Shown: positions 36,942 through 39,507 of the stretch, piece after piece | Layout: each line of letters starts with the position of its first letter | Numbering within the stretch: the first letter of the stretch is position 1 | Made by a program: the position numbers and the translations under genes | IMG/VR virus record: IMGVR_UViG_3300042319_002356 | Span: 26,768 to 90,767 of that record | From: a virus | Direction: 5' to 3' (one strand) | DNA: 64,000 bases | Notes under the pieces: model-generated | The model's input: the letters and a program-made list of their open reading frames with translations, nothing else | Databases searched by the model: none | What the model was told of the DNA's origin: nothing

Positions 36942-37415
36942 ATGGAAAAGACTTTACTCTCATACGAAGGAAATATTACAACTGAATATATTGACAGTGT
37001 GGTTGAGTATGTTAATACATTGGATGAAAAACCGGCATTAATTAGAAAGATTTGTTTTTTAATTGTTGAAGTTTTACAAAATGTATTCCACCATTCAGAT
37101 AAGAATGAACATGGAAATACTTTCGCATATTTCCAATTAATTAAGGATGATACTTATATAATAAAAACCGGAAATTTAATCTCAAAAGAAAAAACCGAAG
37201 GGTTAGAAAAAAGATTAGAATGTGTCGTGAGTTCAACTGAGGATGAAATTAAAGAAAAAATATTCAATAATTTAAATAAGGAAGGATTTAGTGAAAAGGG
37301 TGGTGCTGGAATTGGACTTCTTTCAATCAGGAAGAAAGTGAATGATGGAATGACATATGATATTGAGATTTTTAAAGGTGATTATAATATGATTCATTTT
37401 GAAATTAGAATATGA
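36942..37415 (+). CDS. SiaB-family (GHKL-type) protein kinase
   Basis: VEVLQNVFHH, TGNLI and GGAGIGL motifs. Confidence 0.75.
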   Translation: MEKTLLSYEGNITTEYIDSVVEYVNTLDEKPALIRKICFLIVEVLQNVFHHSDKNEHGNTFAYFQLIKDDTYIIKTGNLISKEKTEGLEKRLECVVSSTEDEIKEKIFNNLNKEGFSEKGGAGIGLLSIRKKVNDGMTYDIEIFKGDYNMIHFEIRI

Positions 37416-37948
37416 AAAAAGATACTGGAAATATTAGAGATATAATGAAGTTTTTCATTGCTCATCAGATAAAGAAAGGAGAAATACCCAAATTAACACC
37501 TGTCATTTATCACAACATAGGGGTTAGTAAAAATTCATTAAACGATATCACAAAGGTTCTACCGGTGTTTAGAGAAATTTTGGGTGATGATTATATACAA
37601 AAATTCATATCAAAATTTGAAAACAAACCAATTAATGTTAATGATTATGATGATAACATAGGTGTTGGAGGTTATGATTTCATATTTAAATTTGATATTT
37701 ATAAAATGTATAATTATAATGATTTCTATCTTGTAGAACTCAATATTAATATTGAGCCAGGTGGTGAGGTTACACTTATGACTGACGGTGAAACATATAC
37801 ATTTGAAGAAATGGATAGGACAAACCACGAGGCATGGCAAGAAGTACAACAAGAAATAATTGAATTAATATTTGACATACTTCGTTACAAACTCACAGAT
37901 TACACCGGACTCCAAGACTTTTCAATAGAAAAGTTGAAGTATTTTTAA
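37412..37948 (+). CDS. Hypothetical protein
   Basis: 178 aa ORF. Confidence 0.65.
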   Translation: MKKDTGNIRDIMKFFIAHQIKKGEIPKLTPVIYHNIGVSKNSLNDITKVLPVFREILGDDYIQKFISKFENKPINVNDYDDNIGVGGYDFIFKFDIYKMYNYNDFYLVELNINIEPGGEVTLMTDGETYTFEEMDRTNHEAWQEVQQEIIELIFDILRYKLTDYTGLQDFSIEKLKYF

Positions 37949-37955
37949 AAAAAAC

Positions 37956-37986
37956 TTGACATAACTGAAAAATAGCAGTACTTTTG
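37956..37986 (+). promoter_or_regulatory. Bacteroidota-type promoter of the leader/tRNA operon
   Basis: TTGACA-17 nt-TACTTTTG, the same spacing as at 46739, 63319, 63421 and 63530. Confidence 0.8.
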
Positions 37987-38015
37987 TAAAACAATTGATA
38001 TTTAATAAGAAAACA

Positions 38016-38129
38016 ATGAAACAGAACTCAACACATAACGTAAGTAATCTCCCGATGAACGTGGGCCAAGCGTGGTTTACGATTAAGGGGCAGGATTGCC
38101 GTAAGTTCAGGGTTCTTAATAAGATGTAA
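38016..38129 (+). CDS. Putative attenuator leader peptide (37 aa, MKQNSTHNVSNLPMNVGQAWFTIKGQDCRKFRVLNKM)
   Basis: Translated manually; A-rich start context; 29 different codons; overlaps the antiterminator arm. Confidence 0.8.
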   Translation: MKQNSTHNVSNLPMNVGQAWFTIKGQDCRKFRVLNKM

Positions 38130-38187
38130 TCGTATCATCAAATATATAAAGAAGGACCCTGAACTATAAAGTTCGGGGTTTTTTTTT
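38104..38187 (+). promoter_or_regulatory. Mutually exclusive antiterminator/terminator (attenuator)
   Basis: 38104-38117 AGTTCAGGGTTCTT pairs over 14 bp with 38152-38165; alternatively 38156-38165 pairs with 38170-38179 in a 10 bp hairpin followed by a U tract. Confidence 0.85.
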
Positions 38188-38201
38188 GGTGTTACAAAAA
38201 G

Positions 38202-38212
38202 GTTCTTTGACA
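38202..38212 (+). promoter_or_regulatory. rrn boxA-like element
   Basis: GTTCTTTGACA just before the first tRNA; similar elements at 63587 and 55534. Confidence 0.55.
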
Positions 38213-38229
38213 TATTGGGAAAAATAAAT

Positions 38230-38308
38230 GACCTCATAGCTCAGTTGGTTTTTAGAGCGCCATACTTTTATAATATGGGAGTCCCGAGTTCAAATCTCGG
38301 TGGGGTCA
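38230..38308 (+). tRNA. tRNA, probably Lys(TTT)-derived, with a 9-nt anticodon loop
   Basis: Full cloverleaf; CCATA-CTTTTATAA-TATGG anticodon arm. Confidence 0.7.
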
Positions 38309-38309
38309 C

Positions 38310-38451
38310 AATTGGTAGTAAAAATGCGTAGGATGGAAGACGTGGAGAGACGAGTCGCAAGGGTACACACTTAGAACTGCTCTATTATGGTGTGTGAAGC
38401 GTCGTAGTGATACGAATCCCAGATTCCTGATAAATCCATCCACTACCAATT
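38310..38451 (+). ncRNA. Unknown structured RNA between tRNAs
   Basis: Closing helices AATTGGTAGT/ACTACCAATT and GGATGGA/TCCATCC, plus internal stems. Confidence 0.6.
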
Positions 38452-38458
38452 TTTATAT

Positions 38459-38531
38459 GCGTCTGTAGCTCAATTGGTAGAGTACTGGTCTCCAAAACCA
38501 GGTGTTAGAGGTTCGAGTCCTCTCAGGCGTG
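38459..38531 (+). tRNA. tRNA-Trp(CCA)
   Basis: Cloverleaf; CT-CCA-AA loop. Confidence 0.93.
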
Positions 38532-38537
38532 CAACAA

Positions 38538-38610
38538 GCCTCCTTAGCTCAGTTGGTAGAGCACTTGTTTTGTAAACAAGATGTCGTTGGTTCGAATCCG
38601 ACAGGAGGCT
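38538..38610 (+). tRNA. tRNA-Thr(TGT)
   Basis: Cloverleaf; TT-TGT-AA loop. Confidence 0.93.
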
Positions 38611-38617
38611 CAAACAT

Positions 38618-38692
38618 TCTCACGTAGCTCAGGTGGTTTAGAGCATTTGACTGATATTCAAAAGGTCGTTGGTTCGAGTCCAACCGTGAGAA
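38618..38692 (+). tRNA. tRNA-Ile(GAT)
   Basis: Cloverleaf; CT-GAT-AT loop. Confidence 0.9.
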
Positions 38693-38700
38693 CTTAATTT

Positions 38701-38775
38701 CTAGGTGTCGGGCAGATGGTTATACCCGCATGGTTTGGGACCATGATATCGTAGGTTCGAATCCTACCACTTAGA
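38701..38775 (+). tRNA. tRNA-Pro(TGG)
   Basis: Cloverleaf; C1-G72; TT-TGG-GA loop. Confidence 0.9.
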
Positions 38776-38782
38776 CAACAAT

Positions 38783-38855
38783 GGGCTGTTGGTATAGACG
38801 GTTAACACACTTGCTTTGCACGCATGAGTCCCCGGTTCGAGTCCGGGATGGTCCA
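38783..38855 (+). tRNA. tRNA-Ala(TGC)
   Basis: G3:U70 pair; TT-TGC-AC loop. Confidence 0.9.
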
Positions 38856-38867
38856 CTAATCGGAAGT

Positions 38868-38935
38868 ACGTAAAAAATGGGTGGAACTTGTGAAAAATGA
38901 GAGTAAAACCACTCTTAACGTAAAAAATGGGTGGA
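38868..38935 (+). repeat. 18-nt direct repeat with a 50-nt period
   Basis: ACGTAAAAAATGGGTGGA at 38868 and 38918. Confidence 0.8.
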
Positions 38936-38954
38936 GAATATTTGAAAGAAATAT

Positions 38955-39030
38955 GGGGTGATAGCACAGGTGGTCAGTTCGCGTCGGTCTGAAAAACCGA
39001 AGATGTGTGGTTCAACTCCCACTCACCCCA
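38955..39030 (+). tRNA. tRNA-Phe(GAA)
   Basis: CT-GAA-AA loop; bulged D and T stems. Confidence 0.8.
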
Positions 39031-39110
39031 CGAGGTCCTGAATTAACAGGACAACCCCACCTCCGATATGGCAGTCAGTCCGTTAATCTGACGAAGTGGG
39101 TTTTTTATAA

Positions 39111-39186
39111 GCGGGTGTTGCATAGTGGCCGATTGCGTCTGCCTTCCAAGCAGAAATCACCGTGGGTTCGAATCCCACTACCCGCT
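39111..39186 (+). tRNA. tRNA-Gly(TCC)
   Basis: GCGGGTG acceptor, CT-TCC-AA loop, U73. Confidence 0.92.
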
Positions 39187-39266
39187 CCTAGTGTCTCGGT
39201 AAGCTCTGACGAAAGTCAACTACGAGGTCTCGGTGGACAGAAGGCCTCTGATTCCACCCACTTTTT

Positions 39267-39339
39267 GGCTCCATGGTTGAATGGCAACAATGCCGGCTTG
39301 TCACGCCGTGTGGTACGGGTTCGAATCCCGTTGGAGCCG
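39267..39339 (+). tRNA. tRNA-Asp(GTC)
   Basis: TT-GTC-AC loop, G73. Confidence 0.9.
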
Positions 39340-39400
39340 CAAAAAGAGGAATAACTTGTGTAGGTGCCTCAGGGGACTGCAGCCCCACTACACTCCATTT

Positions 39401-39471
39401 TGTCCCTTCATCTAATGGCAGGATATCAGATTTTGATTCTGAGTATGTTGGTTCGAATCCAGCAGGGACAA
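39401..39471 (+). tRNA. tRNA-Gln(TTG)
   Basis: U1-A72; TT-TTG-AT loop. Confidence 0.88.
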
Positions 39472-39507
39472 CTTTTTTAATTCAAATTTTTTTATTATAT
39501 TTGCTCT

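Follow-up and report, generated by a model that had tools for sequence, protein, structure and literature searches.

A candidate leader-peptide attenuator ahead of a viral tRNA array, and what the codon composition of its leader can tell

Leader-peptide attenuation is classically known from enterobacteria, where trpL, hisL, leuL and pheL are accompanied by the multivalent leaders of thr (Thr and Ile) and ilvGMEDA (Ile, Leu and Val). In these systems a short ORF lies in the 5' leader, the 5' arm of the terminator can pair alternatively with a segment at the 3' end of that ORF, the stop codon is placed so that a terminating ribosome masks the segment, and the codons are matched to what the operon supplies. 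Classical leaders also show a bias to sensitive codons, the subject of sensitive-isoacceptor theory (PMC1183508), with the rare CUA codons of the leu leader as an example (Carter et al. 1986, cited in PMC1183508). Two further systems come close to the locus described below. One is boxA/Nus antitermination in the leader and spacer of the E. coli rrn operons (boxA, UGCUCUUUA; PMC2724277) and in the lambda nut site, where a phage uses the boxA of its host. The other is the T-box riboswitch, which senses tRNA status and works a terminator/antiterminator switch ahead of translation-related genes by binding one uncharged tRNA directly, with no ORF needed. We found no published account of leader peptides ahead of phage tRNA arrays, and a blastn search of GenBank phages gave no match to this locus.

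The locus belongs to a 90.8-kb IMG/VR virus contig (33% GC), whose DNA is present in lake-water metagenomes, and the window is the 64,000-nucleotide stretch of that contig that was analysed. The initial annotation, made from the letters alone, had singled out a 37-codon ORF as a "codon sampler" of 29 distinct codons and 18 amino acids enriched in G/C-ending codons. It took this composition as a sign of selection on codon identity rather than on the peptide, and as independent support for a role in sensing. The ORF turns out to stand in the middle of a compact series of elements that ends in a tRNA array (Table 1).

Table 1. Positions of the leader elements and their neighbours in the window; folding energies and pairings are predicted.
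Feature	Position	Strand	Details and basis
Gene of unknown function, immediate 5' neighbour of the leader	37412-37948		Pfam: no match
Putative leader promoter, Bacteroidota-type	37956-37986	+	TTGACA 37956-37961, 20-nt gap after TTG, TACTTTTG 37979-37986; sequence reading
Leader ORF ("codon sampler")	38016-38129	+	37 codons and TAA
Long imperfect hairpin within the ORF (1:2 hairpin)	38023-38117	+	-32.0 kcal/mol, predicted
Region 2, putative antiterminator 5' strand, AGTTCAGGGTTCTT	38104-38117	+	14 contiguous pairs with 38152-38165
Putative intrinsic terminator	38154-38187	+	5' arm 38154-38165, loop ATAA, 3' arm 38170-38181, nine T 38179-38187
boxA-like element GTTCTTTGACATATTGG	38202-38218	+	17-mer; single copy in the window
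tRNA array, putatively regulated	38230-39472	+	ARAGORN and Rfam

The promoter fits TTG-N19-21-TAnnTTTG, which we take to be the Bacteroidota promoter consensus; in all relatives the hexamer and the TAnnTTTG box are constant and the spacer between them is variable. Two genes 5' of the leader, the ORF at 36942-37415 encodes a DUF6272 protein (Pfam E 4e-23). The leader ORF has an A-rich start context and begins with MK, and its peptide matched no Pfam and no PHROG family. The leader transcript as a whole is predicted to fold with -57.5 kcal/mol (z -5.0). Within the ORF, region 1 (AGAACTC, 38023-38029, codons 3-5) can pair with GGGTTCT (38110-38116) in region 2, closing a hairpin that would serve as an anti-antiterminator; it is kept in the consensus fold of 19 relatives, where the changes are one-sided only and no double compensatory change was seen. 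Region 2 can pair instead with the 5' arm of the terminator, and since this arm is common to the antiterminator (-21.7 kcal/mol) and to the 12-bp terminator stem (-23.1 kcal/mol), the two predicted folds are mutually exclusive. Region 2 ends 10 nt before the stop codon, and the stop codon lies 24 nt before the 5' arm of the terminator. The boxA-like element starts 15 bases after the T run, and the first tRNA-like gene follows 11 bases further on. Rfam returned tRNAs only at gathering thresholds over the whole window, and nothing else at E values up to 10 in 37900-38470, a search that included the T-box family (RF00230) with its stem I specifier loop and T-box sequence. A weak match to Thr_leader, at 23 bits where the cut-off is 55, involves the terminator only and was rejected.

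The features that define a leader-peptide attenuator thus seem to be present as far as sequence can tell, namely a leader ORF on the transcript of the array, a terminator, an exclusive antiterminator and cognate codons. We propose that the ORF is translated and serves as the leader of a ribosome-mediated transcription attenuator controlling the phage tRNA array, and we put the probability of this reading at about 0.7. Transcription would begin at the promoter of Table 1. If the 37 codons were read rapidly to the stop, the ribosome would cover region 2, the terminator would form, and RNA polymerase would halt 15 nt before boxA. If a charged tRNA were scarce, the ribosome would stall within the ORF and open the 1:2 hairpin, region 2 would then pair with the 5' arm of the terminator, and the polymerase would continue, transcribe boxA, presumably gain host Nus factors, and go on to transcribe the tRNAs. 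A leader of this kind that held at least one codon for each tRNA species of the array would have a high diversity of amino acids and codons as a consequence.

Set beside the enterobacterial attenuators, the locus shares the anatomy outlined above and differs from them in several respects. The genes to be regulated are tRNAs and not biosynthetic enzymes, a boxA follows the terminator, the whole is carried by a phage of Bacteroidota, and it would be tRNA supply rather than amino-acid supply that is sensed. Unlike the trp and his leaders, this type of leader has no runs of tandem codons; instead, between 9 and about 19 different tRNAs are represented by single codons at scattered places in the ORF. 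In the window no codon occurs more than three times and none stands in tandem, so that the tandem or clustered codons of a regulatory kind are absent. The likeness to T-box riboswitches ends at the switch itself and at the kind of gene that it precedes, since many tRNAs would here be read through the ribosome, and the locus has no T-box or specifier features and no Rfam match.

The element 3' of the terminator is, by its consensus-like sequence and by its place in the rRNA operons of hosts, the boxA of the host rRNA operon. Its GTTCTTTGA resembles the E. coli UGCUCUUUA (PMC2724277), and more than 120 stretches of bacterial genomes, mostly Bacteroidota, contain the 17-mer; of the 122 Bacteroidota genome matches, 70 lie in the rRNA spacer, 270-880 nt past the 3' end of 16S. 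More than 114 viral contigs also have this 17-mer, as a rule immediately 5' of tRNAs and after a promoter or a terminator. As in lambda, a phage would be using the host boxA, and host Nus factors would presumably be recruited. In contrast to rrn and lambda, however, the element heads tRNA arrays and lies 3' of a conditional terminator, so that only transcripts which had got beyond the attenuator would come under its influence. A scan of the gap between terminator and boxA revealed no sigma-70 consensus site, and inspection by eye no TTG-N19-21-TAnnTTTG. Because boxA acts as RNA and no promoter was seen in this gap, some of the transcripts begun at the leader promoter must get past the terminator. 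In some other families (L061, L125, L147, L150, L042 and L105) a TAnnTTTG-type promoter does lie between terminator and boxA, and there the array has a constitutive promoter besides any read-through from the leader.

The arrangement is not peculiar to the window. We surveyed every boxA (up to two mismatches) preceded by a terminator, in 149 viral loci and the window, and an ATG-initiated ORF of at least 15 codons that ends near the terminator was present at 78 of the 79 terminator-preceded boxA sites. The 45 distinct leader peptides of these Bacteroidota phages form 20 clusters at less than 50% identity, which have layout and amino-acid repertoire in common, not sequence; they are not fully independent in descent. 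In all 20 families the ORF has 22-50 codons, as against 14% of shuffled upstream regions that contain such an ORF, and in all 20 the distance from the stop codon to the 5' arm of the terminator is 21-37 nt. The 3' end of the ORF pairs with the 5' arm of its own terminator at a mean of -12.8 kcal/mol, compared with -8.7 (sd 0.55) for mismatched combinations, a value reached by none of 100,000 shuffles. As this pairing is specific to the family's own terminator although the terminator stems differ, it amounts to covariation between families.

The codons of the leaders also correspond to the tRNAs that they precede. In the 17 families with at least six array amino acids, 10 array amino acids are absent from the family's own leader, as compared with 30.4 (sd 3.8) when leaders and arrays are paired at random, and no pairing in 100,000 gave so low a count. 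Among degenerate codons, 328 of 382 can be read by array anticodons under strict wobble rules, against 291.8 (sd 6.1) from local codon usage (z 5.95). The leader of the window contains a cognate codon for each of the nine non-Met anticodons of its array (Trp, Thr, Ile, Pro, Ala, Phe, Gly, Asp and Gln), whereas gene windows of the same length cover 5.8 (sd 1.3) and only 1.4% of them reach nine; for anticodon coverage in fourteen other families the combined p is 7e-13. The total of leader codons that the array of the window could read is ordinary (13 of 36 vs 11.6, sd 3.1, in gene windows); what is unusual here is that every tRNA is sampled, and not how many codons are readable. Within the family, a leader Ala codon accompanies an array tRNA-Ala (3/4 vs 1/13; p 0.02, calculated without regard to descent). 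Three phages with two arrays each (L104, L106 and L112) have two complementary leaders, and in L112 the first leader and its array lack G, A, D and E, which the second leader and its array hold. Among the observations that speak against the attenuator reading, identical leaders precede arrays of differing content, and the leader of the window still includes five Asn and four Lys codons although the Asn and Lys tRNAs seen in relatives are lost from its array. A run of array amino acids in the peptide, GQAWFTIKGQD, was not significant alone by a rough estimate and was dropped. It is in comparative evidence of this kind that the sensing role proposed in the initial annotation finds its support, and this evidence is much stronger than the codon statistics it had cited.

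Those statistics are accurate as counts. A recount agrees with 29 distinct codons and 18 amino acids (all but Glu and Tyr), at a GC3 of 0.595 and a GC1+2 of 0.365. The 20,722 windows of 37 codons in 73 long ORFs of this 90.8-kb contig have a mean GC3 of 0.256 (sd 0.089) and do not go above 0.568, so that the leader exceeds every single one; at least 29 distinct codons are found in 0.5% of the gene windows and at least 18 amino acids in 5%. The G/C-ending codons named in the initial annotation are indeed rare in the phage genes, where each accounts for 2-20% of its synonymous family (CTC 0.02, GGC 0.02, TGC 0.06, ACG 0.08, CCG 0.10, GTG 0.12, AGG 0.12, GGG 0.13 and GCG 0.20). Nevertheless, the number of distinct codons is no great feat for this composition, as stop-free shuffles of the ORF's own bases give 27.3 (sd 2.0) and 28% of them reach 29. 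Within the leader, codon positions 1, 2 and 3 differ marginally in GC (p 0.056).

The excess at third positions is mainly one of G (15 G, 7 C, 5 A and 10 T), and across families the claim of G/C-ending enrichment holds for G and fails for C. Leader GC3 is above that of local genes in 15 of 17 families (0.37 vs 0.26, p 0.0007), GC1+2 not being raised. NNG makes up 92 of 212 purine-ending codons where 51.2 are expected (z 7.0), and 11 of 16 against 3.8 in the window. NNC, with 79 of 259 pyrimidine-ending codons and 74.5 expected (z 0.66), is not enriched over the families; in the window it accounts for 7 of 17 against 3.7. We considered that the NNG excess might be tuned to U34 tRNAs of the array, and rejected this because the excess is equally strong in codon boxes without an array tRNA (28/54, z 4.9) and in those that have one (53/128, z 6.2). 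Over-use of G-ending codons may reflect slow codons, rare or read by wobble, that sharpen the switch, or it may reflect third-position G that builds helices, and the data do not decide between the two. High GC3 together with high codon diversity is a useful flag for leaders of this kind, and alone is no proof of selection at the level of codons.

Conservation among close relatives leads to a similar view. Scans with k-mers recovered 33 viral contigs, in which the leader transcript is 95-99% identical to that of the window, compared with 49-92% for flanking genes and about 81% for clpP, and the ORF is intact in 33 of 33 family members. Where a residue is conserved, its codon is identical in 781 of 789 cases (99%) in the leader and in 2932 of 4840 (61%) in flanking genes; even for ClpP, at 90% protein identity, identical codons number 110 of 203. 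The comparison of synonymous positions suggested in the initial annotation thus gave a positive result. Variation in the untranslated stretches is, however, just as low as in the ORF: 6 of 28 columns vary in the 5' UTR and 7 of 26 in the spacer that follows the stop, as against 21 of 111 in the ORF (5, 6 and 10 at codon positions 1, 2 and 3), so that constraint on the RNA can also explain the frozen sites. Amino-acid changes among family members are common and non-conservative (T/K/I, M/T/I, A/S/T, G/D, K/C and K/E). The alignment indicates that what is constrained in the leader is its nucleotides, the constraint being neither on the peptide nor specific to codons. A search with nhmmer and the family profile added three weak matches only, and the other families have no recognisable sequence homology to this one; the pattern AAGGGGCARGATTGCCG recovered the true relatives plus three chance matches in GC-rich contigs (L035-L037) and was set aside.

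These results bear on what else the ORF could be. The alternative nearest to our own keeps a translated attenuator and attributes high GC3 and frozen synonymous sites to RNA structure, the diversity of codons being a by-product of unbiased composition. It would account for the shuffles that reach 29 codons, for third positions that are not notably freer to vary than the first and second, and for a G excess that is the same in served and unserved boxes, and predicted pairing probability across families is indeed higher for G-ending than for A-ending third positions (0.66 vs 0.43). In the window 17 of the 22 G/C third positions are predicted to be paired, but this is not significantly above A/T (p 0.30). 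A plain need for G/C also predicts an enrichment of C-ending codons, which is absent, and GC is not raised at first and second positions (0.36 vs 0.38) even though a weakly constrained peptide could have supplied it. The matching of codons to anticodons and the full coverage of the array tRNAs are left unexplained as well. We regard this alternative as rather unlikely, although RNA structure may account for the GC3 and the frozen sites. The claim of selection on codon identity is accordingly kept in part: some selection on codons is indicated by the matching and the coverage, while GC3 and synonymous conservation do not distinguish it from constraint on the RNA, and the two statistics, diversity and GC3, lose the standing of independent support that they had been given.

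That the locus is instead a structured non-coding RNA, or a leader that binds a protein, a ligand or a tRNA in the manner of a riboswitch or T-box, with an incidental ORF, seems to us improbable. The strong fold, the uniform conservation of the whole transcript, variable sites without the usual excess at coding third positions, and the possession of its own promoter and terminator would all suit such an RNA. It gives no reason, on the other hand, for an ORF of at least 22 codons in every family where chance would yield one in 14%, for a stop codon always placed 21-37 nt before the terminator, or for a content of amino acids and codons that tracks the downstream tRNAs; no Rfam family matched, T-box included, and a boxA 3' of the terminator with no promoter seen between them calls for read-through. 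We think it still less probable, and indeed very improbable, that the ORF is the gene of a small protein which has a function of its own and lies before a tRNA array by accident. Its integrity in all family members and its A-rich start context and MK start, as in many real small genes, are what one would expect of such a gene; replacements such as K to C, K to E, G to D and T to K, in a peptide whose kept residues have frozen codons, are not, nor are 20 families that agree in layout and repertoire and not in sequence, and neither Pfam nor PHROG offered a match.

Returning to the attenuator, metatranscriptomes gave some RNA-library contigs of interest, in four runs from different studies, all from relatives and not from this phage. 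One contig (X16) begins in a relative's leader, bridges terminator and boxA, and continues into the first tRNA, and one in a second study (X15) reaches boxA. Contigs in X15 and X18 include the promoter region, so that carry-over of DNA is possible, and contigs of this kind cannot show RNA ends, nor does a lack of coverage elsewhere carry any weight; we take the bridging contigs as a weak hint of read-through only.

A more specific form of the attenuator reading takes the leader for a multi-input sensor of the tRNA pool, in which a shortage of any of about ten tRNAs would switch on the phage's own array through read-through and boxA, its single codons being biased to slow, G-ending or wobble-read ones. 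We hold this form tentatively and would put it a little below even odds. Such shortages could be caused by host anticodon nucleases, by host shut-off or by a mismatch in codon usage. If true, it would constitute a homeostatic feedback on tRNA supply, which is undescribed for any tRNA gene: phages would regulate their tRNA genes by having a ribosome test the tRNA pool, and the principle of the trp operon would apply not to amino-acid synthesis alone but also to tRNA supply, and to ten or more amino acids at once rather than to one or three. It would also give a testable handle on why and when phages need tRNAs of their own, for which compensation of codon usage, host shut-off and escape from tRNA-cleaving defences are candidate reasons. 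In addition, Bacteroidota phages would here be seen to borrow the boxA of host rRNA operons, and for annotation it is of consequence that such leaders resemble GC-rich non-coding RNA and are missed or misfiled.

The array itself shows several peculiarities. It begins with an odd tRNA that has a 9-nt anticodon loop, followed by a structured insert of 140 nt and by the tRNAs for Trp, Thr, Ile, Pro, Ala, Phe, Gly, Asp and Gln. The first gene (38230-38308) scores 53.8 bits with the Rfam tRNA model and is missed by ARAGORN on account of its anticodon loop (CTTTTATAA). At the same position relatives have an ordinary tRNA-Asn(GTT) and tRNA-Lys(TTT), which suggests that these were lost or remodelled in this phage. 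The stretch between this gene and tRNA-Trp (38310-38450, about 140 nt) is GC-rich, is closed by an inverted repeat (ATTGGTAGT...ACTACCAAT) and matched no Rfam family; part of it (38319-38371) is covered by two short RNA-library contigs from one run. Five relatives have a different GC-rich insert, starting with GGGATAAAAGCACATAAGGATGTGCGG, which replaces boxA and tRNA after the terminator (L005:2291-2480, also in L006, L013, L015 and L019), and their array resumes after it. Between tRNA-Gly and tRNA-Asp, 71 nt (39190-39260) are 95-97% identical in most relatives, above the neighbouring tRNAs; neither ARAGORN nor Rfam made a call in this interval, which may be an aberrant tRNA-like RNA. Finally, in L104, L106, L112, L147 and L085 two leader-terminator-boxA units stand in series, and G, A, D, E, L and M fall to one leader with its array, while the other leader and array have the remaining amino acids.
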